Source of the DNA: a virus
Lineage: Duplodnaviria; Caudoviricetes
Virus record (IMG/VR): IMGVR_UViG_3300020044_001295
Location: 1-29,706 of that record
DNA: 29,706 nt
Strand: one strand, 5' to 3'
The notes below the pieces were generated by a model. The model was not told the DNA's origin. It made no database searches and saw only the letters and a list, made by a program, of their open reading frames with translations. This document shows, piece by piece, positions 2,836-19,574 of this stretch (the stretch's first letter is position 1; each line of letters starts with the position of its first letter). A program made the translations under genes and the position numbers.

Positions 2836-2918
2836 ACCGACGACTGCAGTTGCCGGTACTCTCCTCTCTCCGTTGTGAGATTCAGCCCTTCCGAGTTCGC
2901 TTGGTGGGGCTTTTTTTT
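2836..2918 (+). ncRNA. Candidate ~83-nt small RNA with CU-rich anti-SD segment
   Basis: 5' hairpin 2836-2857, single-stranded ACTCTCCTCTCTCC, 3' intrinsic terminator; no credible ORF. Confidence 0.55.
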
Positions 2919-3319
2919 GGAGCAATCTCAGGGATCTTTTCTACAATGATCTCAGAGCGGGGGTTCTCAGGGTCTAGCCCCCAATAGCAATGACGCTCTT
3001 TAACCTGACGATCGTTCTCATATATAAGACCCTGCATCAGGTCTAGGATCAGGCTCTCGTCCAAGTCGGGTCGCCTTGACGCATAAAAAATATGCAGAGT
3101 AACTCGCAGATCACCCGTCATTAGGGTAGCAAGTGGCCGGCACTGTTGCCTAAAAACATCAGAGTAACTTAATGCTTTCTTAGACTTAATCAGCCGAGAC
3201 ATACCACCGTAGTGTACAACTCTACGCGAATTAGCCTTTGACGCAGGCTCTCCAAAAATAATTTGTGATAGCACTTGCAATTCGTCTGCGCAATCGCTAT
3301 TATTGAGGTTCGGATTCAT
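2882..3319 (-). CDS. rusA: RusA-like Holliday junction resolvase (start uncertain, 3319 or downstream)
   Basis: GEPASKANSRR...RRPDLDESLILDLMQGLIYENDRQV...NPRSEI matches the RusA pattern. The ORF-track start at 3355 overlaps the next gene and is unlikely. Confidence 0.8.
   Translation of the reverse strand: MNPNLNNSDCADELQVLSQIIFGEPASKANSRRVVHYGGMSRLIKSKKALSYSDVFRQQCRPLATLMTGDLRVTLHIFYASRRPDLDESLILDLMQGLIYENDRQVKERHCYWGLDPENPRSEIIVEKIPEIAPKKSPTKRTRKG
2884..2918 (+). terminator. Rho-independent terminator
   Basis: AGCCC-TT-CCGAG-TTCG-CTTGG-TG-GGGCT stem-loop followed by T8 (2911-2918); overlaps the 3' end of rusA on the opposite strand. Confidence 0.7.
3275..3303 (+). promoter_or_regulatory. 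Rightward promoter TTGCAA-N17-TATTAT for the recombination operon
   Basis: Near-consensus hexamers, 17-bp spacer, 35 bp upstream of ATG 3339 with GGAGAG RBS. Confidence 0.6.
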
Positions 3320-3338
3320 AACAACCTTTGGAGAGTAA

Positions 3339-4205
3339 ATGAAGATAACCAACAAACAGAATCTGCCCGCACCACTAGTGGCTTTGCTGTCACGTAACTA
3401 CTACAGCAAGGGGGCATCACAGTATAGCGTGACTGAGCTAATGTCGCCACCAAAGATTCGCAGACTACGCGAACAGTATGACGAGTCGATGGAGATTGAC
3501 GTAACCAAAATGATTGCTTCTCAGCTAGGCACGTTCATGCACGGCAAGCTTGAGGCCAAGGAAGTTGAGGGCTACCACAACGAGGAGCGCATCTTTACCG
3601 AGATCGATGGTGTGGTGATCAGCGGTGCGATCGACCTACAACAAGTGGTAGATGGCGGGGTCATCATCATTGACTATAAGTTTGTCAAGGCGTGGTCAGT
3701 CAAGCAGGGCAAGTCTGATTGGGAAACGCAGTTGAACATCTACAAGTGGCTTGTTGAGTCTGTCAAGCGTGTACCCGTCAAGGGCTTGCAGATCTGCGCC
3801 ATCATCAAGGATTACTCTGCCCACGACACATCAGAGGGCTACCCCGAAGCTGAGGCAATCATGATTGATGTCCCAATGTGGGACGCAGTCAAGACCGAAG
3901 CCTATGTCCGTCAGCGCCTAGATATGCACCGCCATGCCCGCATGGCTCACGACTTTGGAGAAGAGCTTCAGCCCTGCTCTGATGAGGAACGTTGGATGAC
4001 CGAGACGGTCTACGCCACGAAGAAGGATGGACGCAAGTCTGCGATCCGTTTATTTAAAACCATAGAGGAAGCCACAGAGTTGGCAGAAAAGGAAAAAGGC
4101 TATGTCGAAACCCGCAAAGGCGAACCCAAGCGTTGCACAGGAGATTTCTGTGGAGTCAGCAAGTGGTGCAGTCAATATCAAGGAGAACTCAATGTCACCG
4201 CATGA
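3339..4205 (+). CDS. PD-(D/E)XK (RecB/Cas4-like) exonuclease
   Basis: GTFMH...E...SGAIDL...IIDYK...QLNIY motifs; C-terminal Cys cluster (C...RC...FC....WC); adjacent to an annealing protein. Confidence 0.85.
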   Translation: MKITNKQNLPAPLVALLSRNYYSKGASQYSVTELMSPPKIRRLREQYDESMEIDVTKMIASQLGTFMHGKLEAKEVEGYHNEERIFTEIDGVVISGAIDLQQVVDGGVIIIDYKFVKAWSVKQGKSDWETQLNIYKWLVESVKRVPVKGLQICAIIKDYSAHDTSEGYPEAEAIMIDVPMWDAVKTEAYVRQRLDMHRHARMAHDFGEELQPCSDEERWMTETVYATKKDGRKSAIRLFKTIEEATELAEKEKGYVETRKGEPKRCTGDFCGVSKWCSQYQGELNVTA

Positions 4206-4896
4206 TTTATTGAAGATCAACGTCAACGACCACACCGAGAAGAAGAACGGCTTAACGTACCTCTCATGGGCATGGGCATGGCAAGAAGCTTTGAAGGCAG
4301 ATCAGACTGCTACGTTTGATGTGCAGACCTTTGACGGCAAGCCTTACATGGATGTCAACGGCACAGGCATGGTATGGGTCACCGTTACCTTGTTTGGTCA
4401 GCCCCGCACTTGTATGTTGCCCGTCATGGACTACAAGAACAAACCCATCCTTAATCCTGATGCGTTTGCCGTTAATACCGCCATCATGCGATGCATGACC
4501 AAAGCCCTTGCCTTGCATGGCCTCGGGATATACATCTATGCCGGAGATGATTTACCGCAGTCAGACGCTCCAACCACTATGGGTGAGTTGACCAAACAGG
4601 AAGACGCACCTCATTACGAGGAGATTATTGCCAAGGTTTGGGAGAAAAAGCTTGGCAAGACTGCACCCAAGGCAGACCAAACCTTGGACAACTCTGACGC
4701 AAGTCGCAAATTGTTTGCAGACGGGATGATTGAGTACACATCCCACTGCACCACGGTAGCTGGTTTAAACAGCTATTGGAAAAGCAATCAGCTTCAGCTT
4801 GACTCGCTGAAGGTGACGCACCCCGACCTCTACCAAGCGGTCTTAACCAAGTTCCAAGAACTTAAAAAATCCTTTTCTAACGGAGAAACCAAATGA
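4192..4896 (+). CDS. Sak3-like (DUF1071) single-strand annealing protein
   Basis: NVNDHTEKKNGLTYLSWAWAW...LPVMDYKNK...VNTAIMRCMTKALALHGLGIYIYAGDDLP; AGGAG RBS before ATG 4192. Confidence 0.85.
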   Translation: MSPHDLLKINVNDHTEKKNGLTYLSWAWAWQEALKADQTATFDVQTFDGKPYMDVNGTGMVWVTVTLFGQPRTCMLPVMDYKNKPILNPDAFAVNTAIMRCMTKALALHGLGIYIYAGDDLPQSDAPTTMGELTKQEDAPHYEEIIAKVWEKKLGKTAPKADQTLDNSDASRKLFADGMIEYTSHCTTVAGLNSYWKSNQLQLDSLKVTHPDLYQAVLTKFQELKKSFSNGETK

Positions 4897-5555: not shown

Positions 5556-5931
5556 AGCCCGTAAAGTAGCGTTGAAGCAAGACCGTACAGGTTTTATTTT
5601 GACGCTTGCCATGCACCCCGACGATGTTCCGGAGGAGATCCTCCGTGACTTTGTCGGGACACGTTACGCCTGTGCGGTGGTTCGCATCAATGATGATGAA
5701 TCACCGATGGAGTACGACAACCGAGTCAAGAAGGCAGGGATGCTATGTCGGGATCAAGACTTTCAATTCTTTCTAGGGGTTGACAGTGAAGATGCTGCGG
5801 CTGACAAGCTGTGTAAACACTGCGGTATCGAATCAAGAACAGAACTCAATGGGAATGCCAGCGCCAAAACAATCTTTGACAGGTTGGTTTCATCCTATTC
5901 AGATACGAAAGTAATCGATGACCCTTTCTAA
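5539..5931 (+). CDS. Hypothetical phage protein
   Basis: 130-aa ORF within the operon, AAGGA RBS. Confidence 0.75.
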   Translation: MALQFEARKVALKQDRTGFILTLAMHPDDVPEEILRDFVGTRYACAVVRINDDESPMEYDNRVKKAGMLCRDQDFQFFLGVDSEDAAADKLCKHCGIESRTELNGNASAKTIFDRLVSSYSDTKVIDDPF

Positions 5932-6229
5932 GAAACTTAAACCCTTCATGACTTACATGGATGACCATGACTACGTCAAGCTTAAACGCTTTGCCAAGTC
6001 CAAGAAGGTCACTATGGCTAGGATTCTGCGTGAGGGATTGGTCATGCGGATGGCTGAGGACAACCCTTACATGGCCGGCTTCAATGACGGCCTTGACAAG
6101 GCGGTAAGCTTGATGACCGCAAATAATGCGGCTCAGATGCGCTTTCCGTCGGGTCAGTCATTCGCAGAGATCATGACCGACGAGATCATGCAACACCGCA
6201 TCCGCGAGGTTCCAAATGAAACTGCTTAA
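5918..6229 (+). CDS. Putative ribbon-helix-helix DNA-binding protein
   Basis: KPFMTYMDDHDYVKLKRFAKSKKVTMARILREGL fits the RHH pattern. Confidence 0.6.
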   Translation: MTLSKKLKPFMTYMDDHDYVKLKRFAKSKKVTMARILREGLVMRMAEDNPYMAGFNDGLDKAVSLMTANNAAQMRFPSGQSFAEIMTDEIMQHRIREVPNETA

Positions 6230-6446
6230 CGGTCAGCGTAATCAATGCCAAAGCTGTAAGGAGTACTTCAACAGTGTCGGAGCATTTGAGAAGCACCGCA
6301 CGGGCAAGCATGGTGTTAACCGCAGATGCAGAACTCCCGAAGAGCTTCTGGCTTTGGGATGCAGTTTAAACAAGGATGGGTTTTGGATTACCAAGAAACG
6401 TCCCGAAGATTCATACACAACAAGGAGTCAAGACAATGATGACTGA
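6216..6446 (+). CDS. Phage zinc-finger protein (CxxC...FxxHR type)
   Basis: CQSCKEYFNSVGAFEKHRTG...RRC. Confidence 0.7.
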   Translation: MKLLNGQRNQCQSCKEYFNSVGAFEKHRTGKHGVNRRCRTPEELLALGCSLNKDGFWITKKRPEDSYTTRSQDNDD

Positions 6447-6612
6447 AAAGCTACGCAAGAAAGCCCGTTGCTTATACAACAACGATATGGTTCCCGAACA
6501 CATTAACCGCCACAACCAACGCAAGTGGGTACGTGCAGTTCTGCGCTTGGGTGAGCATTGGTTGATTGCCAAGCCAATAGGGAGACTTGATGCAAACCAA
6601 AGCCATCCTTGA
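6436..6612 (+). CDS. Hypothetical phage protein
   Basis: AAGGAG RBS before ATG 6436; basic 58-aa protein. Confidence 0.7.
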   Translation: MMTEKLRKKARCLYNNDMVPEHINRHNQRKWVRAVLRLGEHWLIAKPIGRLDANQSHP

Positions 6613-6796
6613 GTTTATATACCCCGAAGATGAGGACAGGCTTCTGTTCGCCATCAAGGGGCCGGAGATGTACAAGGCACTGACAAATATCAAGATGGCA
6701 GTGACAGGAAGCTTTAACACCAAGGCTGATTTAAACGCAGTCCTTGACCGAGTACAAGATTTAACAGATCAAATATTTGAGGAGCTAGGAGAATGA
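6590..6796 (+). CDS. Hypothetical phage protein
   Basis: GGGAG RBS; overlaps neighbours in the operon. Confidence 0.7.
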   Translation: MQTKAILEFIYPEDEDRLLFAIKGPEMYKALTNIKMAVTGSFNTKADLNAVLDRVQDLTDQIFEELGE

Positions 6797-6975
6797 CAAA
6801 CGAGGAGAGGGAGATAGATTTAAACATTGCAGACCTAGAGGCAGAGAACCGTAGGCTCAAGAAGGTAGAACAGGCGGCTCAGGCCGTAGTCAAATCGTTT
6901 AGCAATAGCATTGACTACAACACTTGGGATGCAGCGCTTGATGCGCTTGAGGCTACGCTGAAGGAAAAGCCATGA
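6793..6975 (+). CDS. Hypothetical coiled-coil protein
   Basis: AGGAG RBS; ATGA coupling at both ends. Confidence 0.7.
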   Translation: MTNEEREIDLNIADLEAENRRLKKVEQAAQAVVKSFSNSIDYNTWDAALDALEATLKEKP

Positions 6976-7187
6976 ACAGAGAAGACATTATTCGCATGGC
7001 GCGGGAGCAAGGACTCCCAGAAACAGATACTGAGGGGGTGTTCATTGTAAACACCGATGATCTTGGCCGAATGCTTTCTGCCGAGCGTGAGGCGTGTGCA
7101 CAGATGCTAGAAGCGGCTTCAAAAACAGGAAAAATAATAAGTTGTACAAGTGCGGCAAAAGCCATCCGAGCAAGGGGACAAGCATGA
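6972..7187 (+). CDS. Hypothetical phage protein (EREACA family)
   Basis: Paralog of 1734..1922; ATGA coupling. Confidence 0.75.
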   Translation: MNREDIIRMAREQGLPETDTEGVFIVNTDDLGRMLSAEREACAQMLEAASKTGKIISCTSAAKAIRARGQA

Positions 7188-7351
7188 ACTTTAACCAAGG
7201 AAAACTTGTTGACGGCCTGATTGATGACCTGATGCAGACCATCCACAAATATGATGACTCTTTGTACATGGCGACCGTCATTGGTGCATTGGAATTTGTC
7301 AAATTGCAATTGATTGAAGAAAGCAAGGAGCATGATGATGACACAGACTGA
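7184..7351 (+). CDS. Hypothetical phage protein
   Basis: Starts MNFNQGK at the ATGA overlap at 7184. Confidence 0.7.
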   Translation: MNFNQGKLVDGLIDDLMQTIHKYDDSLYMATVIGALEFVKLQLIEESKEHDDDTD

Positions 7352-7598
7352 AGCATTACGCCTTGCATTGGAGGCGTTGACAAACGCATATTGGCCTACT
7401 GATTCTGATTTATTGCCAGCGCACAACATTAAAGAATGTGTAGAAGCCATAACCGCCATTAAAGCCGCACTAGAGGCGAAGGATGAGCCTGTGCAAGTAT
7501 CGCCATTACAGTTTGTTGAGATGGTGATGGAAAAGGAACACTTGGTCGGCAAGCCAATATTCTGGGCTGAGTGGCCTAACAAGGAGAAGAACACATGA
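7332..7598 (+). CDS. Hypothetical phage protein (EALRLALEAL type)
   Basis: AAGGAG RBS then ATGATGATG; ends KEKNT. Confidence 0.7.
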   Translation: MMMTQTEALRLALEALTNAYWPTDSDLLPAHNIKECVEAITAIKAALEAKDEPVQVSPLQFVEMVMEKEHLVGKPIFWAEWPNKEKNT

Positions 7599-7777
7599 AG
7601 AAAAAAAATGATGGTTATGAATACAAAACATATGACATGGCAAGATTTCACATACCTGAAGGTTTGTATTCCATAGAAGATGTTGAAAAAATGCTCATTC
7701 ACATGAAAAAAACAAAACAAAAAACAGAAGCATACCTTGCAAAAACCTTAGAGCCAATCAAGGAGAAGAACACATGA
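7595..7777 (+). CDS. Hypothetical protein (AT-rich cassette)
   Basis: Flanked by identical 20-nt junction repeats. Confidence 0.7.
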   Translation: MKKKNDGYEYKTYDMARFHIPEGLYSIEDVEKMLIHMKKTKQKTEAYLAKTLEPIKEKNT

Positions 7778-7962
7778 AATACTCACAATCCAAACCGCTT
7801 GTGGAAGAGTTGATAAACCTTGCAATACTGTTTCATGGAAGCCCAACCATGTTACGTACCAAGATAGCTGACGTAATTGACAAGTACATCCCCGACCTTG
7901 ACCCCGCTTGTATGGAGCGGGGTTGTACGGCCATCGATGACTTTAAGGAGAAGAGCACATGA
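7774..7962 (+). CDS. Hypothetical protein
   Basis: Flanked by junction repeats; ATGA coupling. Confidence 0.7.
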   Translation: MKYSQSKPLVEELINLAILFHGSPTMLRTKIADVIDKYIPDLDPACMERGCTAIDDFKEKST

Positions 7963-8219
7963 GCAAAGGATTCCTTGACGATATACCGATCTACAACACT
8001 GCCCGTGACAAGGCGTGGGAGGCGTTTATCAAGCGCAAGGATGTAAAGCATTTGGTGAAGCATGGCCTATTTGATAAGGGCTTTCCACTGTATGGTGGCT
8101 ACTACGAACTGTGGTGTCAAGCTTGGAGTCGCGCTTGGGAAAGCGGGTTTAAAGATGGCTACGACTCAGGCTGGGCTTCATGTGACTTATTAACAAAGAA
8201 AACCAAGGGGAAGAAATGA
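7959..8219 (+). CDS. Hypothetical protein
   Basis: 86 aa, Trp-rich; ATGA coupling. Confidence 0.7.
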   Translation: MSKGFLDDIPIYNTARDKAWEAFIKRKDVKHLVKHGLFDKGFPLYGGYYELWCQAWSRAWESGFKDGYDSGWASCDLLTKKTKGKK

Positions 8220-8452
8220 GAACTCACACACCCGAAGACGTAAAAAAGATTGAATCTAATTATGCTTTAAACGTATGGGAGCGGGCGCTGGGGTGGCGCA
8301 AGCGGCAGATGATCATCAAACAACTTGATCCTGTAACCAACCAAATTAGAAACAATGTCTTGGAAGAAGTGGCCAAGGAGTTTGACCAAATGAAAAACGG
8401 TGGCGACACCTCGGCAAGTTTTGCCGCCTACGTAAGAGGTATGAAGAAATGA
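8216..8452 (+). CDS. Hypothetical phage protein
   Basis: RNNVLEEVAKEF...GDTSASFAAYVRGMK; ATGA coupling. Confidence 0.7.
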   Translation: MRTHTPEDVKKIESNYALNVWERALGWRKRQMIIKQLDPVTNQIRNNVLEEVAKEFDQMKNGGDTSASFAAYVRGMKK

Positions 8453-8631
8453 ACGGGTTTGCACAGCAACAGCTTGAGATCGGTAGCAAGCAACCAACAC
8501 ACAAGTTTAAACACTGCGATAAATGCGCAGCCAGCAAACCACCGGAGGGTGGTATTCAGATGAATCCTACCAAGTGGTACTGCGCCCCTTGTTGGGCGTT
8601 ACGAGCTTCAAGAAGACCAAAGAATTCCTAG
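8449..8631 (+). CDS. Small Zn-ribbon protein
   Basis: CDKC...KPPEGG...WYCAPC. Confidence 0.7.
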   Translation: MNGFAQQQLEIGSKQPTHKFKHCDKCAASKPPEGGIQMNPTKWYCAPCWALRASRRPKNS

Positions 8632-8751
8632 CCAAGTGTCGGTTTATTGTTGCTTGTACTAGCCTTGTAGATGTGACTGTAGAGCAGCGGAATTTGAAGG
8701 ACTTGGCTATGCGTTTTTACGACCTTCTTATTCTATATTCCAAACTATGAC

Positions 8752-8792
8752 GGGGGGCATAGACGAATCTACTAACCCCCCACTTTATTTTT
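8752..8792 (+). terminator. Hairpin plus T-rich tract (possible terminator or processing site)
   Basis: GGGGGG(8752-8757)...TAGA-CGAA-TCTA...CCCCCC(8776-8781) followed by ACTTTATTTTT. Confidence 0.4.
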
Positions 8793-8802
8793 AAGGAAAA
8801 GA

Positions 8803-8991
8803 ATGCCTAGACCAAAACCACCATCACCACTCAAAGGCCGCAACATGCGGATGTCTGATGTTGAGTGGCTCATGTTTTTAGAACTTGGCGGGGCTGATTG
8901 GCTCCGCAAGTATGTAAAGAAGAAAGCAAAGTTCCCAGCTCAGTACTATGAGCTTAAACAAAAGGAAAATGATGATTCAACGAGCAGATGA
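8803..8991 (+). CDS. Small putative DNA-binding protein (RHH-like)
   Basis: MPRPKP...RNMRMSDVEW...LGGADWLRKYV; AAGGA RBS. Confidence 0.6.
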   Translation: MPRPKPPSPLKGRNMRMSDVEWLMFLELGGADWLRKYVKKKAKFPAQYYELKQKENDDSTSR

Positions 8992-9202
8992 TTACCAAAT
9001 TGATGGCCGCCATTACAAAGACATGGAGATGCAACCGTGGAATGTAATGGAGGCAGTACTTACACCCGAAGAGTTTGTTGGGTTTCTTAAAGGAAACATC
9101 ATCAAATACGCCATGCGATCAGGACACAAAGAAGGCTCTCACGATTCCGAGAAAGCCCGTCACTATGCGCAAAAACTTGCAGAGTTTCAGGCTCTACTAT
9201 GA
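8969..9202 (+). CDS. DUF3310 (SaV-like) protein
   Basis: QIDGRHYK...QPW...GFLKGNIIKYAMRSGHK...DSEKARHY. Confidence 0.85.
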   Translation: MMIQRADDYQIDGRHYKDMEMQPWNVMEAVLTPEEFVGFLKGNIIKYAMRSGHKEGSHDSEKARHYAQKLAEFQALL

Positions 9203-9408
9203 CTGAGTGTAAACGCGAGTACTGCGAATTCATCGGCAGCAAAGCCTTTGAGGACGACAACGGATGGAGTTATGAAGTTTGGGAGGCAGCCCAACAGGCT
9301 GCGTTTAAACGTATAGCTACAAGGTTTGCCGGTTACAAAGACATCGACTATACGGGTCATGAGATAGCCCGATACGTCAACTACTTGGCTAAACAAGATG
9401 TACCGTAA
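9199..9408 (+). CDS. Hypothetical protein
   Basis: ATGA-coupled 69-aa ORF. Confidence 0.65.
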   Translation: MTECKREYCEFIGSKAFEDDNGWSYEVWEAAQQAAFKRIATRFAGYKDIDYTGHEIARYVNYLAKQDVP

Positions 9409-9685
9409 TAAGAAGCTACTTGAGATTGTTCGGGAATCACCCTGTCAGATCTGCGGGGCGCAGGATGGCACGGTGGTAGCCGCTCATTCCAACCAACAGC
9501 GCGACGGCAAAGGCATGGGACTCAAAGCCCACGACTACCGTATTGCGGCCTTGTGCTTTAAGTGCCACGCAGATATTGACCAAGGAAAAACCCTAAGCAA
9601 GCAACAGAAGTTTAAAGCTTGGGATGAAGCCCATCGGAGAACCATTGGATGGCTCTTCGAGAGGGGTCATCTTAGTTTGACTTAG
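9398..9685 (+). CDS. DUF1364/DUF968-like Zn-binding HNH-fold nuclease
   Basis: PCQICG...VVAAHSN...GKGMGLKAHD...ALCFKCHADID. Confidence 0.8.
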   Translation: MYRNKKLLEIVRESPCQICGAQDGTVVAAHSNQQRDGKGMGLKAHDYRIAALCFKCHADIDQGKTLSKQQKFKAWDEAHRRTIGWLFERGHLSLT

Positions 9686-12600
9686 AGATCTCTTTCTTAA
9701 AGAGTTTGATCTGAGATGTCAGTTGATTCTGCGCCTCAGTCAGCTCGTTAATTGCATCACGCTTCTCTGCGCCTGACATATCAGAACTACGCACCTGTAC
9801 CAACGCCTCACGCAGACCTTTCATCTCGGACTCAATAGCCTTGACATAGTCTTGGGCGGCAAACATCGGGGCATTCTTAGTCATGTATGCTTCAATGTCT
9901 TCTACTTTGCCCGTGCGCTCTAACAGATTAACTGTCCGGACAACTTCATCCACAGAGTTCTTTAGGTCATAGTACGCAGACACTGTACCCTTGGCCGCTT
10001 TGTCTACCGCAAATCTCTTGATGACAGGCATTTGCTCAAAGCGTTTGTCTGCTTTGGGTGATGCGTCGTTAGAGCTGAGGATAGAGTCAATCGCATCCAC
10101 AAGGTACATACCCATCGTTCCCGTGTAGCCTTGGATGACGTGATCAACCTTCATGGGGGATACACCTAGATTATTGCCAATCGCCTGCGCAATCTTTGTT
10201 GTACTTGGCCCAACTTGGTACTCAGGGGCTACGCCCTCCATGCCTTGACCAACGATAGGTCTGCCGGTAAAGAACGAGTAGTTTGTACGAGCCTCTTCCA
10301 ACGGCAGGAAGGTTTGAGGTATAGGGTTAAACGCAAATGTTGATTGCAGCGCACGACCCATCGCCTGCGACAAGTCCTTACCCGTGTCATCGCCAAACGA
10401 GTATTCAAGGATACGTTCAGGTATGACTTTAAACAGCACACCCACCTCAAACGGGATAGGTACACGGACACCCGCAGATGGGAGGATCCAATTGTTATCG
10501 CGCACCTCTTGCTCTTGACGCTTGTACTCTTCGTCATCGTGAGTGAGCATCCAATACATGGATGTCAGGGCTGTCAGAGTTGCACCACGGATGAAGAAAG
10601 TCTTTTGCAAGGCTTTCTGTTGGTCTGTAGGACTCTCTCCAAACATAAACTTGCGGATTGTTGGGCTGATACCGGCACGGTAGAACACATCCAAGCCCTG
10701 CATGCGAGCGTTCAAGAACGGCACGGCGGCAGTCAGAATGCGAACGACTGCCAAGTTACCCTTGCGGTTAAAGTTCATCACTTCCATCGCACGGAAGATA
10801 GCTTCGGCTTCGTTGCCTGTACGATCCATGACGGACTTATAAACTGCCATACGAGTGGCCGCATCAGATGCCTCAGTGCCCTTCTCCAAGCCTTCCCACA
10901 GGGAATTGAATGGACGCAGACCCTTCTCCACACCCGTCTGTGTGCCTGTCGCTCTACGCAGTCTCTTGCCAATCAAATCACCGCTGGTCTCTACGTCCTG
11001 AGCAAACTCATAACCACCGATGACACCGGCTCTCTTTAGGGCTAGGAAAGCGGGGTCTTTACCACCAATCGCAGACGCAAAGTTGGAGATGGTTGAGGCC
11101 ACGGGGGTCATCTTATGACCGCTAGTCACCCATGCAGACAGGGAGTCACGCATCAAGTTAGCCATCATAAAGCCGGGGTCTTTGGTCACCAAGTTACGCA
11201 GTGCATTTGCAGGCGCAGACAGGATGCTTAGGAACGGCAACTCAGGTATGTTTAAACTCTTAACAGCGTCAACAAACAACTGATCGGCAACTTCGTATGA
11301 AACGGGCTTGCCGTTCTCCAAAACCGTCACAGTTCCGGGACGGGCGGTTACCTTGTCTAAACGCTCAGCTTCTTTAAGTTGGACGGCAATACCAACCGCT
11401 CTTTGAGCGGCAGTGTTCTTCATACCGGCTTGTACTGCGGCCTGAGTATTACGTACAAGGGTTTCAAGGAAGTCAGCCAACGGGGCTTCTTGCTCTTCCT
11501 TAATACCTTTAAGCTTCTTGGGTGGTTTAACACCGGAGATGCTTTGGAAAATCTTAGGGCCAAGGGTATCTTGACCTTCAAACTGACGGTAGAAAGGAAT
11601 GTAGTCTGCGTACTTGGTGTACTCAGCGGCACGTTCAGGCGACAGAACACCTGTGGCAACTTGATAGGCTACAAGCCCGTCGTTGTACTTGATCCAATCC
11701 TTTTGAACCTGTTCAAACATCGGATACTTCTTCTCTAACTCTTTGGCGTAAGCAATCTCGGCAGGGCTGTAAGTGTGGTCACGGCCACTAGCTAACAGAC
11801 GTGTACCGCGTTTAGCACCCGCCCAAAACTGATACGTTTGGTAGATACGGGGGTCGCCTACTTCAGCCAAAGGCTTAAGGATTTCCATCAATCCCTTAAC
11901 AGATGTGTCGATGGTTGTGTAGCCGTTCTTAAAGACGGGGATACCACCTTCTCCGCTCATACCGATGGCTTGAGCCGCAATCGCATTAGCGTTGTCAGAC
12001 ATCAAAGCCGCAGACTCTGCGCTTGCATCAGCTAGGAGGGCGGGGCCACCCATCTGCTCAGCGAGACGCTTGTCATATGTGCTTAAACGCTCATAACGGT
12101 TGAGCCATTGCTGGCGCAGCGCATCCACAGTGTCAGGTGTAAACGCTTGGAAGATGCGTTCAATGAAGCCCTTCTGCTCCCGCTTGGTTGTCAGGCGGTC
12201 AATACTTGCGTTTAAAGCAACACCGTTTGGCAGCTTGCTAATCTCGTCCTCAACATTACGTACGCTAAAACGTACGTCTTCTTTGTTGGCATACATCTGA
12301 CGCAGAAGAGGTTCGTTTTTGTTAGTGATCGGCGTGGGATTAACAAACGCTGTACGGAAGCCCCAATCATCACGCATCTCATCAGAGTATTTCTGAGGAG
12401 CAAGAGCGGTAGGCAGTGGCTTATCAGATGGGTTGTAGCGACGGACAATGACAGCGGTACGCTCTACGCCCTGCTTCATTAACTCAAGCATACGGTTACG
12501 ACCTTCATGCCCAATGATCCGACCGTCATCATCAACGATCAAGTACATGGAGCCTTCTTGTCCCAAATTGGGAGCGCCATATTTAGTCTGTTGCTTAGCC

Positions 12601-15600
12601 ATGTACTCTTGGTACTCGCGGCTATTGACTGCGTCTAAGAAGTCCTGTGGACGCATCCATGTAATGCCAGCAGATACTTTGCCATCATTGCGGGCGTACT
12701 CATTAACCACCCTATCTAAACGCTCATCGGTCATTGCGCCGCGTAGGCTGTAACGAATGTCAGGATTGGCGCGGCTGTATGCGCCTGTGTTGCCAATCGC
12801 AGACTTGATTTGGTAGGGATTGAATACAACCGCCTCCCACACCTTGTCTCCAAGCATACTGACCAAGCCGTCGTGGCCTTCAGCAATTGCTTGATTGGTA
12901 ATGTATTCTGCGGCTTCATCACGGCTCATCTTGGAGCCGTCGGCAGGCCTAACCTTGAAGATATCGGTATCGATAACTTTTGGGTTAACCATACGGACAT
13001 AGATTGGCATAACGTTGCCGCCATCCGGCCCCATAGTTTCGCCAAATTTACCGTAGCCACCGGTGTACTGCTTGGTGCGGTCGGGGTCTTCAGTTACGTA
13101 GATGCCACGGCCAAATGTACCGTTGCCAACCTTAAAGGTATCAACATCGCTCTTAGTGCCGTGGTACAGAACTTTAGGCGTGCCGTCTGCATTGACAAAC
13201 TTGCTGCCGCTAAACCAACGTTTAAACTCAGGTGTGTCAGGTGCTTCGCGTAGGCTGTAACGGACATCAGGATTGCTGATGTCGTATGTGCCTACGTTGC
13301 CGATGGCAGATTTAACCTGCGTAGGTTTGTAGACCGCGAGGTTCTTGCGGCTATCTTCTTTAACATAGAAGGAGTCAAAACCCAACTGCTTGATAGCATC
13401 TTGGTAGTCGGGAAGTTCTAGGATTTCCCAATCGCCATTCTTGGTTTTTGTTTCAATCGATGTACCCTCCCAAGGAATCAAAGGGTATCGCTTGTCTAGC
13501 AATAACTTGACGTGCTCGGGGTTCTCATAATCAAACGGATTCTCTGCCTTGACATACACAGGCATGATGTTAGGGCCGGAGGGAAGCATAGGCTTGTACG
13601 CCTTACGCAGATATTCCTTGGCCTCAGCCGTTGGTTTATCAGCCTTGATGCTGTCAATCATTTCCTTGCCTTCAGGCATAGACTTGTAGTCTTTGCGGAT
13701 GGCGGCAATCGCTTCCTTCTGACCTTGAGCCATTTGAGCTTCAGTCAATACTTGACGGGCGTTATTAGCAGATTCAATAACGCTGTCAATCGCAAAGCGA
13801 CGGGCAAATGTTGGGTCATCGGTCAAGAAGATAGGAGCGCCACGACCCGTCTTGCGTTCAAACGATGTAACGTCCTTGTCTGTGCCGTGGTACATCATCT
13901 TAGGTGTACCGTCTTCGTTGACGATCGTGCTGCTGCCAAACCACTGTTTAAACTCAGGGGTATCAGGAGCCTCACGCAGGCTGAACTTTGGAGTAACCAA
14001 TGCATCGTAGTTGCTCCAACGTCCGTCACGGTTGGCAAACGAGAACATGGAGGCGGCAGTGATGTCTGAGTCGGGGAACTCAGATTCAAATGCATTTTCA
14101 TAGCTGCGCAACGCACGACCATCTTGCATCTTTAAACGCTGCTTGTCTTTGCCTTCGTAACGTCCGACTTGAGCATCTGCATCAAGAACAGATTGATTGG
14201 TCTCAATGTACTTTTGCAACTTGTCCATCAGCTCGGGACTGAATTGATCAAGTAATGCTTGACGCTCTTGACCGTCTTTGATCAGCTCTTCCTGTGCGGG
14301 TGTGCGCAGGCTGAACTTTGCGCTTGGCGTGGCGCTCACACCGTTTTTGTCAGTAACTTCAACGTAGGAGTCGGAATATCCTTCGCCAAGAAGGTTGACT
14401 TCAACGTCAGAAGCGCCGTCTAGAACGGCTTTAACATATCTATGATTGCCATCCACAACTAACAGATGACCATCAGACTGAAGCCAAACGTCTACGGCTC
14501 CTGTGGATTTTGAGTATCTAGAACGTTTAAAGTTTTCAAGAACTCCATCAAGCGTCTGCTTAGGGATGGACAACATCTCAATAGGAATTGAGGTGGTTGA
14601 ATCATTCATCCAAGCATCACGTAACTGACTCTTGACGGCATCAGGCAACACTTGTGGCTTGCCTGAAAACGCCTGCTTTTCGGGAGCCTCACGCAAGCTC
14701 ATCTTGGCAATAGGGATAACCTTCTTGGAAGATTTAAACCCAAACTGCGCTTGATCCAAGATGGTTACAGACTTGCCGTCTTGCTTGGGGTCGTACTCAA
14801 CGAAGAAGCCGTCAGTTTCTTTGGCCGCAGTCTTCTCCTTCAAGGTAGAAGCTTTATTCCGCAGCCCGATGATCATGCCCTGTTTAAACAGATTGCCTTC
14901 TTCGCCGGGTTTTGGGTCTAAGAACCGGGCATCGTAGTTGTCACCGTCCCAAACTTGGTACGTCTTGCCGGTTTCTTCATCTACGACTGTGTCGGGTAAG
15001 GCGCTCTTACTAGAGAACGCCATAGCCACGTTGTCGCCACGATCCAAGCGACCACGCATGGAGTTCCAATTGTTGGTCTTGTGGGAAACCTTCTCGCCAT
15101 CAATGATCTGACCCACACCTGTAGAGCTATATGTCAAGTGGTGGTTGTCAGCAACCTTGTCACCGTTCATTTTTGTGTAGTCATAAAACATCGTGTCAGG
15201 ATGTGCTTCAAAGATAGGAAGCCACATCTTTGGACGGAAGTCTGATGTAACGTTTAAACGGATAGCAGGCTGGTAGACTTCTTTCTCAAGCGTGTCCATA
15301 GCCCCTGTGTCTTTGTTCTTCTTGCGCTCAGTTTCCTTGGCAGACCACTTCTCAAACATAGAGATCTCGTGGCTCAACAAAACCGCAAACTCTTCAGGAT
15401 GAACAACCAACGCCTCGGTCTTGAGGTACTGCATCATGCGTGGGCCTGCACGGAATGAACTCTTAGAGATGCCTTGAGCATCTTCGGAAGCCGCACCACC
15501 ATACAGGAAGTTACCACCGGATGTTTCGCCAAGGCACAAGCCCTCGCAAATCGCAGACTGTGGGCATGAGCTAATCTTTTCAGTGATCTGCTGGGCAGAA

Positions 15601-18600
15601 GCTAAGCCAAGACCCATAGAGGCAATACTCTTGTCGCCCTTGGTCAAGCCATAGTCACCCACACGGGTTTTCTCAAGCTTGCCGTTCTCGCTAAGCAGTG
15701 TGCCGATGTTGTGTTCCCGCTTGAGCAGGCCACGCACTTGCTTTAAACGAGCTTTCTTATCTGCTGGGGACATGTCGTTGTACTCAGCCACAGCATCGCC
15801 CATACGTTGAGCCATATCTGCGTCGGAGAATGTATCGACGATGCCTTCCTTGCGGGACTTCTGAATGCTAGACAGGTTCATCTTGCGGTTAAAGAACTCG
15901 CCCTGTGCTATTGGCACATAGAAGTCTTTGCGACCGTCTTGATATTCCACATCATCAATCTGAAGCAGAGACGGATTGATGTTTAAAAGCACCGTGCTGC
16001 CGTCAAATTCTTGATCAAAGTTGCCGGGCTTATTGACAATCTTGCCACCGTTAGATTCGTTAGTCAGATAGATGCGTGAGCGACCTTCTGCAAGGATCTT
16101 CTTGGAGGCATTAAGCTTGACGGCGTTGTCCTTGGTGGTGTGGTAGTACACCGTGACTGTGCCGTCCTTGTTTAAAGGGATGCCAAGCACAGGATCAATG
16201 CCGTATTTATCTGCGGTCTTGAGGGAGTACTTGGTTGCAGGCGTAGTCAGGGGCAGATCTAAACGGCCTTCTGATACGTAGGGCAGGATGCCGTTCTTCA
16301 GGGCGTACTTCTCAGCCTTCTCCACATCTTCAACTGAAGCTTTCCATGCGTTCTCTTGCGACGGCACGTTCTTGGGGGATGGCTTGAGCTTACCGGCTTC
16401 GGCTTGACCAAAGATATCCTTGTAGGTTTGGAAGCCACGACCGGACAGGTAGTTGCTCAACGCATCAAAGAAGTTGCGCATCTTATTCAAAAGCGCAGAC
16501 AACATGCCGGGAGGCGCTTTGGAAGAATCAAAGTCACCAAACGCATCAGCGATGGCTTCTTCCATGATGTCAGCATCAGAAAGACCAAGCTTTTGATACG
16601 CTTCATAACGGGTCACAACTGTGCCGTCATCAAGGGTAGCCTTCTTCGACTTCAGATACTTGTTGATCCACTGATCCTTAGCCATGCGCTCCAAGGCTTT
16701 CCACTGCTGTGGCGTGAAGAAGCCTAGTTCTTTTAGAGCGTGTAGCGCCTCATGGCGCATAGTGCGGATAGGGTTCTGCGCATCGACTGCGAGTTGAATA
16801 ACCTTGGCGGCATATGAGCCGTCGGCTTGGTTCTCGATTGCCTTGACAATATTCAAGGCTACATCGCCAAGACCAAACTTGTCGAGCGTCTTGCGTAAAT
16901 CTTGAGTCAGCTTCTTTATCTCAGCAGTCTCAGTGACGGGCTTCTCTTGTTCAATCTTGCCAAGGACTTCAGAGACCTTTTTACCCTTAGCGGGGGGCGC
17001 ACTACGGCGACGGTTCTGTTCAGCCGCCGCACGGTTAGCCAAGCCACCAAACTTCTTGTCAGATACCAAAGCATCTAGGGCATCGTCAGACAGGTCTGCA
17101 AGGATGCTTTCCTCTGCCGCTTCACGGGTTGGGAATGTGCCCGTCTCTTTACCTTCTTTGGTAATCGTGTAACCGGTACGGGCAACAGGTTTAGAGCCAA
17201 CAGGCTTAGATGTAAGCTTGGCTGTTAAGCCTTCAATTTCTTTGTAGAGAGCATCAATGCGCTTACCAAGAAGATCTTCCTTGGCGGCTTGACGTGTTCT
17301 CTTCTGCTTGTATAGATCGCTGTCAAAATCCCCAGCCGCTTCCATCTTCTCAAGCTCACGCTTGCCTTGATTGACTGTGTCTTCGTACTTCATTACTTCT
17401 TGAAGCTTTTCAGCGGCAATCTCTTGGCGGTCTGCGGATAGCTGATCAATCTTGCCCTGCACCGCTACTTTATCCAAAACAGTGGGGAACGGCTTACCGC
17501 CAGCTTCAGAAGTGATTTGGTAGCCTTCAGGCTCTTCACCCTCTTTAAACTGACGTTCGGTAATGTCATAACCTGCGGGTAAACCCGCACGTGGTTTAGA
17601 TGGAATAACGGGCGCAGCCTTGGGAGCTACCTGCGTCAACGTGGCTTCACGAACGTTTAAACCCTGCTTTTTAGCAGCAGCATCCGCTGCGGCGCGTGTT
17701 GGGTACGTTGAAACAAGCTGGTCATTCTCTGGCTTGTATGTTCTGTAAACGGTCTGTTTGTCTTCGGTCAGGTCACCGTTTTTAACTGCGGTGTCAAGAA
17801 CTGCACGGGCATCACGGTCTGTCTCAAGGTTGGTAGCTTCCTTGATTTCAGTGAGGATCGTATCCACTGAGAGGGGTTTGCCGCCACGCTCATTGAACGT
17901 CAGGCCAACCATCTTGACTGCGTTGTCGTACTGCGACTGTTTAAACCGAGATGCGTTAGTGCCTTCTGGCAAAACAATTTGCTGCCCGGTCAAGTTGGCC
18001 GGCATGTCAGCTAATGCTGTAAACGCGGCATATAGCTGCGGCTCAGACATCTCTTGTAGGTTGTTTACACCGGTGGTGCGGGCTAGGAAGTCGTTGAAAC
18101 CTTTGGTTCCTGTGGCAACGTTCTTCTCGATGGCGGCATTCTCCACATCCTTAGAGGTAAAGTTCTGCTCACCGGTATAACCGGTCTTGGCGGCAAGGAT
18201 GGAATCCAAAGCGGCCTTCTCGCCCTCTGGATTAACCGCAGTCATTGCGTCTTTAACGTCCTCAATAGAGTATGTCTTGAGACGTGGTAGTCCGTTGTCC
18301 TTGCGGTACTGATTAAGATAGCTTGTGACTTCAGGGCCAAGTTCATCGGGCGTAAGATTGCCGATGGGGTTCTGAAGAATAGGCTCTTCTTTTTCCGGAA
18401 TGATAGTAGATGCAGGGGCAGGTAACGCCAACAACTCTTCGCCTACGCCAAATTGTTTTTTGGTTGCATCAAGCTTAGCCTGCTCAGCCGCAATGGCTTC
18501 ACGTTGTTGCTTGGCGTATTCTTCTTTGCCGGCCATCTCGTTGGCAACGTACTCCTTGCGCATAGAAGACAGCTTGGCGGGGGAAGTCACTGCACCTAAG

Positions 18601-19574
18601 CCACCACCGATTAACAGATCATTGATGGCCTGAGCGGCTACGCCTTTGAGTAAGTCGGTCTCAAGTCCGGCTTGATTCAAGGCAACGTTAGTACCAACTT
18701 GTCCCGTTGTAGCTTGGATAGCTTCGGGGACTGCCTCCTCCACCACATTCTTGCGCAAGGCTTGACCAAATGTAGGCTCAGGCAAACCTTTGGTAGCCTT
18801 ATCAACCTTGGGAGCGGCTCTACCAAGGGAGCCAAGCGCACGTTCAATACCAAGAGCGCCTTCTAAACCGCCAACCGCAGTAGAAGCGGCTTGACGTGGC
18901 AAGTTTTGTAACGAGTATTCTGCGGCTCTTTGAGCTAAGCGTTCTGCTTCAGGCTCAGAGTAGCCTTTAGCTAACAGTTCTTGTTTAACCACTTCATAGT
19001 CTTGGCCCTTCTGACCGCCAAGACCCATCAATCCACCAATGCCTGTTGCAGGATTCTTAGCGGCTGAAAGTGCTCTTGCACCTAAACCAACACGTCCCGC
19101 TGTAGCGGCGGCGGCGGCAGGAGGAGCCAAGAAGCTACCCGCAATAATAGGGGCGCTAGAGAATAAAGCTTGAATACCGGCTTGTAGGGGGGCTTCAGAC
19201 AAACCGCCCAAGACAGCTTTAATTTCTTCAACAGTATTGCCTTCTGCGGCCTTCTTAATCTCTTCACGACGAGCAATCTCAGCCTGACGCTCAGGAGTCA
19301 TTGACTCACCGGCGGCTTGTTGGATGTCTCCAAGAAATTTAGAGGCTGTATTGCCTGCGCCTGCAAGGTCAGTTAAAGCTTTAATACCACCTGCCAAACC
19401 TTGGCCTGCGGAGAGGGCTAAGTCTTTGGTAGAAAAAGCGGCAGTCTTAGGTTCTGCTTTAGCACCGTAGACTTGTTCTGAAATTAACTGCTCTGCCTGT
19501 GCCGGTGTCAGACCAGCCGGGACTTCGAATCTACCAATCCTGCCATCCGGCATCTGAAAACGAGCTATGGGCAT
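9672..19574 (-). CDS. Large polyvalent protein, 3300 aa (probable virion-delivered): HEXXH metallopeptidase, ART-like, GP88-like, two ParB/Srx-like, two ART-PolyVal-like modules, LPD38-like C-terminus
   Basis: HEALH aa 941 plus EEAIADAF; YYHTT...IYLTN aa ~1143; CPQSAICEGLC...IRLNVTSD...FYDYTK...HLTYS aa ~1337 onward; VDGNHR; two YHGT...PxY...NP...QxKSAIGN units; HEGRNR; C-terminal PFLNARMQG...IPFEVG...NYSFFTGRPIV. Last gene of the structural operon. Confidence 0.85.
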   Translation of the reverse strand: MPIARFQMPDGRIGRFEVPAGLTPAQAEQLISEQVYGAKAEPKTAAFSTKDLALSAGQGLAGGIKALTDLAGAGNTASKFLGDIQQAAGESMTPERQAEIARREEIKKAAEGNTVEEIKAVLGGLSEAPLQAGIQALFSSAPIIAGSFLAPPAAAAATAGRVGLGARALSAAKNPATGIGGLMGLGGQKGQDYEVVKQELLAKGYSEPEAERLAQRAAEYSLQNLPRQAASTAVGGLEGALGIERALGSLGRAAPKVDKATKGLPEPTFGQALRKNVVEEAVPEAIQATTGQVGTNVALNQAGLETDLLKGVAAQAINDLLIGGGLGAVTSPAKLSSMRKEYVANEMAGKEEYAKQQREAIAAEQAKLDATKKQFGVGEELLALPAPASTIIPEKEEPILQNPIGNLTPDELGPEVTSYLNQYRKDNGLPRLKTYSIEDVKDAMTAVNPEGEKAALDSILAAKTGYTGEQNFTSKDVENAAIEKNVATGTKGFNDFLARTTGVNNLQEMSEPQLYAAFTALADMPANLTGQQIVLPEGTNASRFKQSQYDNAVKMVGLTFNERGGKPLSVDTILTEIKEATNLETDRDARAVLDTAVKNGDLTEDKQTVYRTYKPENDQLVSTYPTRAAADAAAKKQGLNVREATLTQVAPKAAPVIPSKPRAGLPAGYDITERQFKEGEEPEGYQITSEAGGKPFPTVLDKVAVQGKIDQLSADRQEIAAEKLQEVMKYEDTVNQGKRELEKMEAAGDFDSDLYKQKRTRQAAKEDLLGKRIDALYKEIEGLTAKLTSKPVGSKPVARTGYTITKEGKETGTFPTREAAEESILADLSDDALDALVSDKKFGGLANRAAAEQNRRRSAPPAKGKKVSEVLGKIEQEKPVTETAEIKKLTQDLRKTLDKFGLGDVALNIVKAIENQADGSYAAKVIQLAVDAQNPIRTMRHEALHALKELGFFTPQQWKALERMAKDQWINKYLKSKKATLDDGTVVTRYEAYQKLGLSDADIMEEAIADAFGDFDSSKAPPGMLSALLNKMRNFFDALSNYLSGRGFQTYKDIFGQAEAGKLKPSPKNVPSQENAWKASVEDVEKAEKYALKNGILPYVSEGRLDLPLTTPATKYSLKTADKYGIDPVLGIPLNKDGTVTVYYHTTKDNAVKLNASKKILAEGRSRIYLTNESNGGKIVNKPGNFDQEFDGSTVLLNINPSLLQIDDVEYQDGRKDFYVPIAQGEFFNRKMNLSSIQKSRKEGIVDTFSDADMAQRMGDAVAEYNDMSPADKKARLKQVRGLLKREHNIGTLLSENGKLEKTRVGDYGLTKGDKSIASMGLGLASAQQITEKISSCPQSAICEGLCLGETSGGNFLYGGAASEDAQGISKSSFRAGPRMMQYLKTEALVVHPEEFAVLLSHEISMFEKWSAKETERKKNKDTGAMDTLEKEVYQPAIRLNVTSDFRPKMWLPIFEAHPDTMFYDYTKMNGDKVADNHHLTYSSTGVGQIIDGEKVSHKTNNWNSMRGRLDRGDNVAMAFSSKSALPDTVVDEETGKTYQVWDGDNYDARFLDPKPGEEGNLFKQGMIIGLRNKASTLKEKTAAKETDGFFVEYDPKQDGKSVTILDQAQFGFKSSKKVIPIAKMSLREAPEKQAFSGKPQVLPDAVKSQLRDAWMNDSTTSIPIEMLSIPKQTLDGVLENFKRSRYSKSTGAVDVWLQSDGHLLVVDGNHRYVKAVLDGASDVEVNLLGEGYSDSYVEVTDKNGVSATPSAKFSLRTPAQEELIKDGQERQALLDQFSPELMDKLQKYIETNQSVLDADAQVGRYEGKDKQRLKMQDGRALRSYENAFESEFPDSDITAASMFSFANRDGRWSNYDALVTPKFSLREAPDTPEFKQWFGSSTIVNEDGTPKMMYHGTDKDVTSFERKTGRGAPIFLTDDPTFARRFAIDSVIESANNARQVLTEAQMAQGQKEAIAAIRKDYKSMPEGKEMIDSIKADKPTAEAKEYLRKAYKPMLPSGPNIMPVYVKAENPFDYENPEHVKLLLDKRYPLIPWEGTSIETKTKNGDWEILELPDYQDAIKQLGFDSFYVKEDSRKNLAVYKPTQVKSAIGNVGTYDISNPDVRYSLREAPDTPEFKRWFSGSKFVNADGTPKVLYHGTKSDVDTFKVGNGTFGRGIYVTEDPDRTKQYTGGYGKFGETMGPDGGNVMPIYVRMVNPKVIDTDIFKVRPADGSKMSRDEAAEYITNQAIAEGHDGLVSMLGDKVWEAVVFNPYQIKSAIGNTGAYSRANPDIRYSLRGAMTDERLDRVVNEYARNDGKVSAGITWMRPQDFLDAVNSREYQEYMAKQQTKYGAPNLGQEGSMYLIVDDDGRIIGHEGRNRMLELMKQGVERTAVIVRRYNPSDKPLPTALAPQKYSDEMRDDWGFRTAFVNPTPITNKNEPLLRQMYANKEDVRFSVRNVEDEISKLPNGVALNASIDRLTTKREQKGFIERIFQAFTPDTVDALRQQWLNRYERLSTYDKRLAEQMGGPALLADASAESAALMSDNANAIAAQAIGMSGEGGIPVFKNGYTTIDTSVKGLMEILKPLAEVGDPRIYQTYQFWAGAKRGTRLLASGRDHTYSPAEIAYAKELEKKYPMFEQVQKDWIKYNDGLVAYQVATGVLSPERAAEYTKYADYIPFYRQFEGQDTLGPKIFQSISGVKPPKKLKGIKEEQEAPLADFLETLVRNTQAAVQAGMKNTAAQRAVGIAVQLKEAERLDKVTARPGTVTVLENGKPVSYEVADQLFVDAVKSLNIPELPFLSILSAPANALRNLVTKDPGFMMANLMRDSLSAWVTSGHKMTPVASTISNFASAIGGKDPAFLALKRAGVIGGYEFAQDVETSGDLIGKRLRRATGTQTGVEKGLRPFNSLWEGLEKGTEASDAATRMAVYKSVMDRTGNEAEAIFRAMEVMNFNRKGNLAVVRILTAAVPFLNARMQGLDVFYRAGISPTIRKFMFGESPTDQQKALQKTFFIRGATLTALTSMYWMLTHDDEEYKRQEQEVRDNNWILPSAGVRVPIPFEVGVLFKVIPERILEYSFGDDTGKDLSQAMGRALQSTFAFNPIPQTFLPLEEARTNYSFFTGRPIVGQGMEGVAPEYQVGPSTTKIAQAIGNNLGVSPMKVDHVIQGYTGTMGMYLVDAIDSILSSNDASPKADKRFEQMPVIKRFAVDKAAKGTVSAYYDLKNSVDEVVRTVNLLERTGKVEDIEAYMTKNAPMFAAQDYVKAIESEMKGLREALVQVRSSDMSGAEKRDAINELTEAQNQLTSQIKLFKKEISKSN

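Follow-up and report, generated by a model that had tools for sequence, protein, structure and literature searches.

Polyvalent proteins, in which several unrelated effector-type domains and an LPD domain are joined in one phage or plasmid chain, were defined in 2017 by Iyer et al. (PMC5512222). The text of that paper classed LPD38 and DdrB-ParB as phage-type domains and proposed that such proteins process themselves through metallopeptidase (MPTase) domains. In the present study, we analyzed a window of 29,706 nt, a 29.7-kb fragment of the IMG/VR virus record IMGVR_UViG_3300020044_001295 with a completeness of ~49% by CheckV. The largest gene of the window (9672..19574, minus strand) encodes a protein of 3,300 amino acids (aa), P0001, which fits a polyvalent protein. 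Pfam matched LPD38 at aa 3014-3185 (1.4e-38; 133 bits against a cut-off of 27), ART-PolyVal (PF18760) twice (best stretch aa 2129-2265, 2e-38), and GP88. A short peptide, here called the junction motif, recurs seven times along this chain and divides it into cassettes. Like the proteins of Iyer et al., the window protein combines ART-PolyVal, LPD38, and effector-type domains with a candidate zincin-like peptidase in one giant chain. The two accounts differ in that the text of PMC5512222, its ftp supplements apart, names no junction or cleavage motif, and in that the candidate peptidase of the window protein has no Pfam match. A motif of this kind was described in none of the papers found in literature searches, either for the motif strings (full text) or for polyvalent protein, MPTase, and cleavage. 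Self-processing of polyvalent proteins has thus already been proposed, and the junction motif itself appears to be undescribed.

The enzymes that phages package in their heads are a second point of comparison. T4 Alt is processed, and the T4 protease gp21 cuts at L/I-x-E. P1 DdrB/DarB and the T4 internal proteins and Alt are head-packaged anti-defense enzymes that are cut before or during packaging (for P1 DdrB, as stated in the text of PMC5512222). Each of these is a protein of its own that receives a single trimming cut, which in T4 is made by a dedicated head protease, whereas the window protein is one chain with seven repeated candidate sites. Eukaryotic RNA virus polyproteins, an analogy drawn in the same text (PMC5512222), would work alike, with an embedded protease and short junction peptides in linkers; they differ in having no domains in common with the window protein and another protease class, and for the window protein cleavage is a proposal. 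A closer counterpart is gp47 of the Stx phage phi24B (2,811 aa; LPD5, LPD1, LPD38, and a MuF-C metallopeptidase), which proteomics detected in virions and which has been proposed to be packaged in the capsid and ejected (bioRxiv 10.64898/2026.04.10.717836). By its description in the accessible part of that preprint, it is likewise a giant LPD38 protein with a metallopeptidase domain, from a podophage of ~60 kb, and it differs in its other domains, which are LPD5, LPD1, and MuF-C; its processing is not taken up there. The pre-ejectosome of cyanopodophage A4 (PDB 9k3a; PMC12002296) also holds large enzyme-domain ejection proteins in a podophage head, and one of its chains aligned with the second ART module of the window protein (Z 7.6, rmsd 3.9, 122 residues). 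The A4 assembly differs in being a fivefold complex of four separate proteins, and the accessible part of its description reports neither a polyprotein nor a junction motif. Finally, PTXU04 gp25, a cultured relative by its C-terminus, carries no junction motif and has only an HExxxH.

The junction motif and its distribution

The preliminary description of the window had reported a pentapeptide, [KR][FYM]S[LV][KR], at seven places in the giant protein, and a pattern scan of the translation reproduced all of them exactly. The copies, all on the minus strand, were KYSLK at aa 1115 (16218..16232), KMSLR at aa 1624 (14691..14705), KFSLR at aa 1753 (14304..14318) and again at aa 1863 (13974..13988), RYSLR at aa 2105 (13248..13262) and again at aa 2274 (12741..12755), and RFSVR at aa 2435 (12258..12272). 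In 2,000 shuffles of the protein, the mean number of copies was 0.044 and the maximum was 2. The serine of the first copy, S1117, was invariant in 24/24 aligned sequences. A weaker copy, KYALK at aa 1089, had also been listed; we discarded it as a junction, as the 'Ser' column of a 24-sequence family alignment contained E11/A4/Y4/S3 and the peptide is predicted to be helical. The motif was absent from all other open frames of at least 100 aa in the window, and in 4/4 complete relatives (64-66 kb) the strict motif was confined to the giant open reading frame (ORF). These results ruled out the motif as a shared head-protease site, since neither the window nor the four complete relatives had another ORF with it.

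To place the motif in its family, we collected relatives by a word-indexed search with aa 1100-2450, which gave 553 proteins of 1,815-5,775 aa; the family counts use 120 of the 553, among the matches listed. At least one strict copy was present in 108/120 relatives, with 1-7 copies each, and the remaining 12/120 had variants such as KYSLQ or KYSIK. The motif therefore recurred as first written, but the definition proved too narrow, because relatives can also have L, A, P, K, R, or Q at position 2 (for example, KPSLR, KASLR, KLSLR, and KKSLR). The family-wide core was [KR]-x-S-[LIV]-[KR/Q].

We then compared the positions of the motif with the limits of homology. When the window protein was compared with the 120 relatives by BLAST, 166/369 starts of high-scoring segment pairs (HSPs) fell within -10..+5 of a motif, against 7% expected, and 210/374 HSP ends fell within 0..+25, against 11% expected, the HSPs coming from related sequences and hence being non-independent. 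The commonest homology start was motif 4 (66/369 HSP starts), and 50 HSP ends were at aa 1636/1643, beside motif 2. A loose form of the motif was found within 45 aa upstream of 166/173 family ART N-termini, compared with 7.7% of random windows. When 119 proteins were split at the motif and the resulting 380 segments were clustered, we obtained 30 cassette types, which appeared in 47 different orders; the window protein was alone in its order among the 119 compared. Both expectations set out at the start were thus borne out: homology breakpoints piled up at the motif, ART N-termini followed it closely, and cassette content varied while the motif stayed. Collectively, these sequence comparisons indicated that the motif sits at the junctions between cassettes.

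AlphaFold2, supplied with family alignments, gave two models, one of aa 860-1640 (mean predicted local distance difference test score, pLDDT, of 73.1) and one of aa 2085-2660 (mean pLDDT 75.8), which together covered the motifs at aa 1115, 1624, 2105, 2274, and 2435. All of the modeled motifs (5/5) were located in coil of pLDDT<50 between domains of pLDDT 70-95, low pLDDT being a predicted and not a measured flexibility. In the first model, motif 1 (model residues 256-260) lay in coil 251-264 and motif 2 (765-769) in coil 758-781. In the second model, motif 5 (21-25) lay in coil 1-25 and motif 6 (190-194) in coil 177-194, and motif 7 (351-355) started in a short loop (350-353) of pLDDT<50 that separates helix 337-344 from helix 357-362. 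A wider alignment of aa 1600-2470, which took in motifs 1753 and 1863 and cassettes 2 and 3, was dropped as unusable, because MAFFT stacked nearly all ART fragments on the first ART module and forced unrelated cassettes together. The models suggested that the motifs sit in linkers, in line with the preliminary description.

The constraint on the motif was examined through its codons. Among 96 unique family instances, all six Ser codons (61 AGY and 35 TCN) and six Leu codons were found, and the seven Ser codons of the window were AGC (six) and TCC (one). A set of 167 unique ART-upstream windows comprised 135 with the motif and 32 without it, and the central residue of the former was S (126), T (6), or A (3). 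Because all six Ser codons are in use, these counts indicated that selection works on the motif peptide. A DNA-level recombination signal was ruled out as the main constraint by the same codon diversity. In some proteins, position 2 was uniform, with K/R-L-S-L-K/R at 7-8 junctions (L019, L052) or K/R-K-S at 3-4 (P0046, P0074). We make no claim of concerted evolution at this position, as six all-non-aromatic proteins were found against a shuffle mean of 1.45 and a shuffle maximum also of 6. After de-duplication, the residue was the same in 12/40 within-protein pairs, against an expected 0.22, a comparison whose statistics are weak.

The candidate protease and rival explanations of the motif

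Because a conserved peptide with a near-invariant Ser recurs in predicted flexible linkers at the junctions of a shuffled chain, and nowhere else in the phage, we propose that the chain is processed by proteolysis at the motif, that its own HEALH...EEAIAD zincin-like domain is probably the cutter, and that cutting would release the modules. We put the probability of this reading at roughly 40%. By analogy with phi24B gp47, the giant protein would be packaged in the capsid and then ejected. The linkers would be cut at the motif, either in the head or after ejection, and the zincin-like domain in cis would be the likeliest protease. The likeliest scissile bond would be S|L, which would provide a hydrophobic P1' residue; a preference for hydrophobic P1' residues is typical of thermolysin-type zincins. 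The ART, ParB-like, GP88-like, and other modules would then be freed as separate proteins. A bolder version of the proposal is a plug-and-play polyprotein with a cleavage code, in which a family-specific gluzincin-type domain would read [KR]-x-S-[LIV]-[KR], cut S|L, and free any junction-bearing cassette in the next host; this version we regard as doubtful.

The candidate peptidase domain (aa ~884-1059, 16398..16925, minus strand) contains HEALH at aa 941-945 (16740-16754) and EEAIAD at aa 1005-1010 (16545-16562), at the positions first described, and HEALH is the sole HExxH of the protein. In an alignment spanning 33-82% identity, H941, E942, H945, E1005, E1006, A1007, and I1008 were invariant in 24/24 sequences. 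Both elements were located in predicted helices (model residues 82-90 and 141-159, pLDDT 70-94), and EEAIADAFG may resemble the third-ligand motif of thermolysin-type gluzincins. An HExxH was present in 114/120 relatives, which are all those that look full-length; the 6 without it (1,889-2,295 aa) look N-terminally truncated. In many relatives, a second 'HExxH' follows a junction by ~83 aa; judged from the GHEGRNR of the window protein and from the positions, it is probably a ParB-like GHEGR(H) and not a second peptidase. In L025, L026, L028, P0035, and other relatives, a loose motif (KPSVR, KASVR, KESIK) occurs 50-80 aa upstream of HExxH. In these proteins, junction-like peptides stand on both sides of the peptidase-like domain; the window protein has none there.

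To evaluate the contact between domain and linker, we predicted a complex of aa 875-1094 with Zn and the linker aa 1095-1134. The score was 0.46, compared with 0.03 for the best control, and weakly supported recognition of the linker. The mark used for this prediction was reached by 116/157 solved complexes and by 2/215 mismatches, and scores of at most 0.60 comprised only 18 of the 157 solved complexes and both passing mismatches. The runs agreed to at least 7%, and the partner had a pLDDT of 40 or more, with no contacts reported.

Several results weighed against processing by this domain. No Pfam peptidase family matched aa 860-1114 at E<=5, Foldseek of the 781-aa model against the PDB gave nothing at E<=0.001, no zincin was among the VIA matches of the whole 781-aa model, and a profile search of PDB sequences gave nothing meaningful. 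Ahead of the HExxH, the AlphaFold2 model, in which the domain was modeled within the 781-aa segment, was all-helical (pLDDT 57-78) and lacked the zincin sheet. In a language-model atlas, the nearest neighbor of the domain was LPD23 (0.94). The initial metallopeptidase label therefore stood for the conserved motif pair but was matched by neither Pfam nor fold. Co-occurrence of domain and motif was uninformative because all full-length members have both, and the complex score may merely reflect that both chains are contiguous in the natural protein. As stated in the text of PMC5512222, N4 vRNAP, ArdC, and TraC1 carry MPTases yet travel unprocessed. The remaining points came from the C-terminal tail of the ART modules.

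An exhaustive HMMER search with the second ART module and its flanks gave 11,760 representative proteins at E<=0.001, and tail statistics were taken from the best 149 of them. In these proteins, 510 ART C-termini were followed by a conserved tail, D-P-x-N-P-D-I-R-F-S, with I in 85%, D in 56%, P in 50%, R in 48%, F/Y in 46%, and S in 50% at fixed positions. Within the family, the logo after ART modules, including its upstream part, read A-T-G-N-x-G-T-[FY]-D-x-x-N-P-D-I-[RK]-[YF]-S-L-[RK]. The comparison indicated that NPDIR[FY]S, the half attached to ART modules, is a tail that ART-PolyVal domains carry at their C-terminus in general. The basic-x-S-L-basic form was nearly confined to the family and stood before 23/517 ART N-termini outside it. 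The tail was found on 137/372 ART C-termini in 105 proteins with HExxH/HExxxH and on 26/138 in 44 large proteins without either. Among small ART-PolyVal proteins (107-343 aa), 29/64 carried D[IV]R[FY]S and 1/64 had any HExxH/HExxxH, although many of the 64 come from short contigs and the peptidase could be encoded separately. In 10 of those 29, the protein ends within 35 aa of the Ser, with no downstream module to release. These findings on sequence weaken, but do not refute, a strict link to a peptidase in cis.

Other polyvalent families were seen to repeat a post-ART peptide of their own: RIDFSGWDE-KHPRGEHGRW in P0130 (5,313 aa, no HExxH), DIRK-N-NHD in P0145, and PSILMS in P0124. Judged from these sequences, conserved junction peptides may be a general feature of polyvalent proteins, with family-specific forms. 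The ART modules themselves can be far more numerous than the two of the window protein, with up to 23 per protein: P0122, P0124, and P0126 (4,500-5,000 aa) have 21-23 matched ART-PolyVal stretches.

The rival that survived best is that the chain is never cut. The motif would then be a connector inherited with the modules, made of the ART tail and a short basic linker and kept for cassette exchange and flexibility, and the protein would act as one chain, as N4 vRNAP does. The homology breakpoints exactly at the motif suit this explanation, as do the NPDIR[FY]S tail that is intrinsic to ART-PolyVal domains, stand-alone proteins included, and a 78% match over 67 nt around two junctions. Precedents also exist, both in the MPTase-bearing polyvalent proteins that travel intact by the text of PMC5512222 and in the solved podophage pre-ejectosome, whose accessible description (PMC12002296) presents large folded ejection proteins, among them the ART-like chain 9k3a_B noted above. 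However, a passive linker need not hold an invariant Ser and basic flanks where no ART adjoins (1115, 1624, 1753, and 2435). Linkers normally drift, whereas the motif was kept across relatives at 33-82% identity, and its codons were highly diverse, so DNA homology is not the thing conserved. We consider an uncut connector unlikely.

A second rival keeps the processing site but assigns the cut to a different protease, either a host enzyme acting after ejection or a phage family that was not recognized; in that case, the HEALH domain would be inactive or would attack host targets or the cell wall. All the evidence on the motif, its linkers, and its junctions fits this explanation too, the zincin assignment was unconfirmed by Pfam, Foldseek, and VIA, and proteins without HExxH can carry D[IV]R[FY]S tails. 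In the accessible part of their preprint, the phi24B authors propose peptidoglycan as the target of the metallopeptidase of their giant protein (bioRxiv 10.64898/2026.04.10.717836). Against it, profile searches of five relatives, four of them complete, found no Peptidase_S78, ClpP, or S49 head protease; in the search for S77 proteases, the control matched in no genome, so that its result carries no information. The absence of the strict motif from the other ORFs of the four complete relatives argued that it is not a general head-maturation site, and the family-specific basic-x-S-L-basic form is easier to reconcile with a reader particular to the family than with a universal host protease. A cut by another protease thus seemed quite improbable.

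Least probable of all is a docking or modification site, which would serve for phosphorylation or ADP-ribosylation of the Ser (the protein's own ARTs being possible agents) or for binding of the peptide by capsid, portal, or a host partner: a conserved linear motif predicted to be disordered, with an almost invariant Ser, a pattern (basic-x-S-hydrophobic-basic) that presumably resembles basophilic kinase sites, two adjoining PARP-like ARTs, and stand-alone ARTs followed by the motif with nothing to release would all agree with it, but no kinase or partner emerged, and strict placement at one per junction is simpler under processing.

Modules of the giant protein and their setting

All modules are encoded on the minus strand. 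The chain begins with a conserved N-terminal region (aa 1-859, 16998..19574), which was collinear across relatives and in which Pfam found nothing below E 0.3. This region contains a second conserved peptide, LP-L-K-x-YSIED-x-x-DAM (~18260-18300, aa ~427-440), with an invariant P430. It shares only the Y-S-I core with the junction motif, and its flanks are acidic, not basic. The chain ends with a conserved C-terminal region (aa 2440-3300, 9675..12257) that contains LPD38.

Cassette 1 (aa 1120-1623, 14706..16217), between motifs 1 and 2, combines an ART-like fold with GP88 (Pfam aa 1297-1554, 4.3e-15). The segment at aa ~1128-1223 (model residues 269-364) was weakly ART-like in VIA, with Agrobacterium 6b at Z 6.0, TreTu at 4.9, and RhsP2 at 4.1. 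The GP88-like domain (14760-15820; aa ~1252-1605; model residues 393-746) gave weak VIA alignments with radical-SAM/TIM-barrel proteins at Z ~5, namely, PFL-activating enzyme (Z 5.2) and, at Z 5.0 each, spore photoproduct lyase and QueE. Three of its cysteines, C1337, C1343, and C1347 (C-x5-C-x3-C), were invariant in the family and might bind an Fe-S cluster.

Cassette 4 (aa 1868-2104, 13263..13973) is the first ART-PolyVal copy, matched by Pfam in two stretches and assigned to BLAST cluster 0. The second copy, cassette 5 (aa 2110-2273, 12756..13247; Pfam 2129-2265), has a PARP-like fold: Foldseek matched tankyrase 2 at E 4.4e-4, and VIA gave tankyrase at Z 7.9 (rmsd 5.0, 127 aligned) and PARP-1 at Z 7.6. 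Cassette 2 (aa 1629-1752, 14319..14690) was called ParB-like from its DGNHR motif only and cassette 6 (aa 2279-2434, 12273..12740) from GHEGRNR only; with their motifs (aa 1624-1752 and 2274-2434), neither unit had a Pfam match at E<=5. Cassette 6 was folded in the model, with pLDDT blocks of 55-92, and the fold-search lists for the model containing it were filled by ART domain matches. Cassette 3 (aa 1758-1862, 13989..14303) had no Pfam match. Among the unit labels proposed at first, Pfam thus upheld the two ART-PolyVal copies, GP88, and LPD38, the ART-like label of aa 1128-1223 received weak fold support, and the ParB-like pair went unmatched. In a comparison of 269 proteins, cassette 1 was found in 121/269, the peptidase-like and C-terminal regions each in ~120, cassette 6 in 14/269, and the units at aa 1624-1752 and 1753-1862 in 3 and 2, respectively.

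Upstream of the giant gene, the neighbors were a virion structural protein, a holin, and an endolysin. On the other side, ~17 small ORFs of 60-103 aa run head-to-tail or overlapping on the plus strand (5918-9685); they converge on the giant gene and overlap its 3' end by 14 nt (9672-9685), an arrangement that resembles an early-gene array. A recombination module at 2882-4896 comprises a RusA-like resolvase (2882-3355, minus strand), an exonuclease (3339-4205, plus strand), and a Sak-like annealing protein (4102-4896, plus strand). No tRNAs were found in the 29.7-kb window. Among the INPHARED phages, the window had no near match at the DNA level, and matches to the giant protein at the protein level covered single modules only; these phages yielded no cultured relative with the junction motif. 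By tblastn, the C-terminal region recurred in giant proteins of the podophages PTXU04, Pondi, D274, Pag-Yong1, and Bcep22.

Implications for polyvalent proteins

Polyvalent proteins are widespread, with the ART module alone in the 11,760 representative proteins. The proposal that they process themselves has stood without a known site since 2017, and the junction peptide, with up to 7-8 copies per protein and dozens of arrangements, makes that proposal directly testable. It also provides a simple rule for dividing such giants into modules, both for annotation and for expression of single anti-defense enzymes. If the motif is not a cut site, the near-invariant Ser in a predicted disordered linker still needs explaining. 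If the cleavage-code version were true, phage polyvalent proteins would have their first defined processing code, and the NPDIR[FY]S tail of ART-PolyVal domains would be the ancestral form of the signal.

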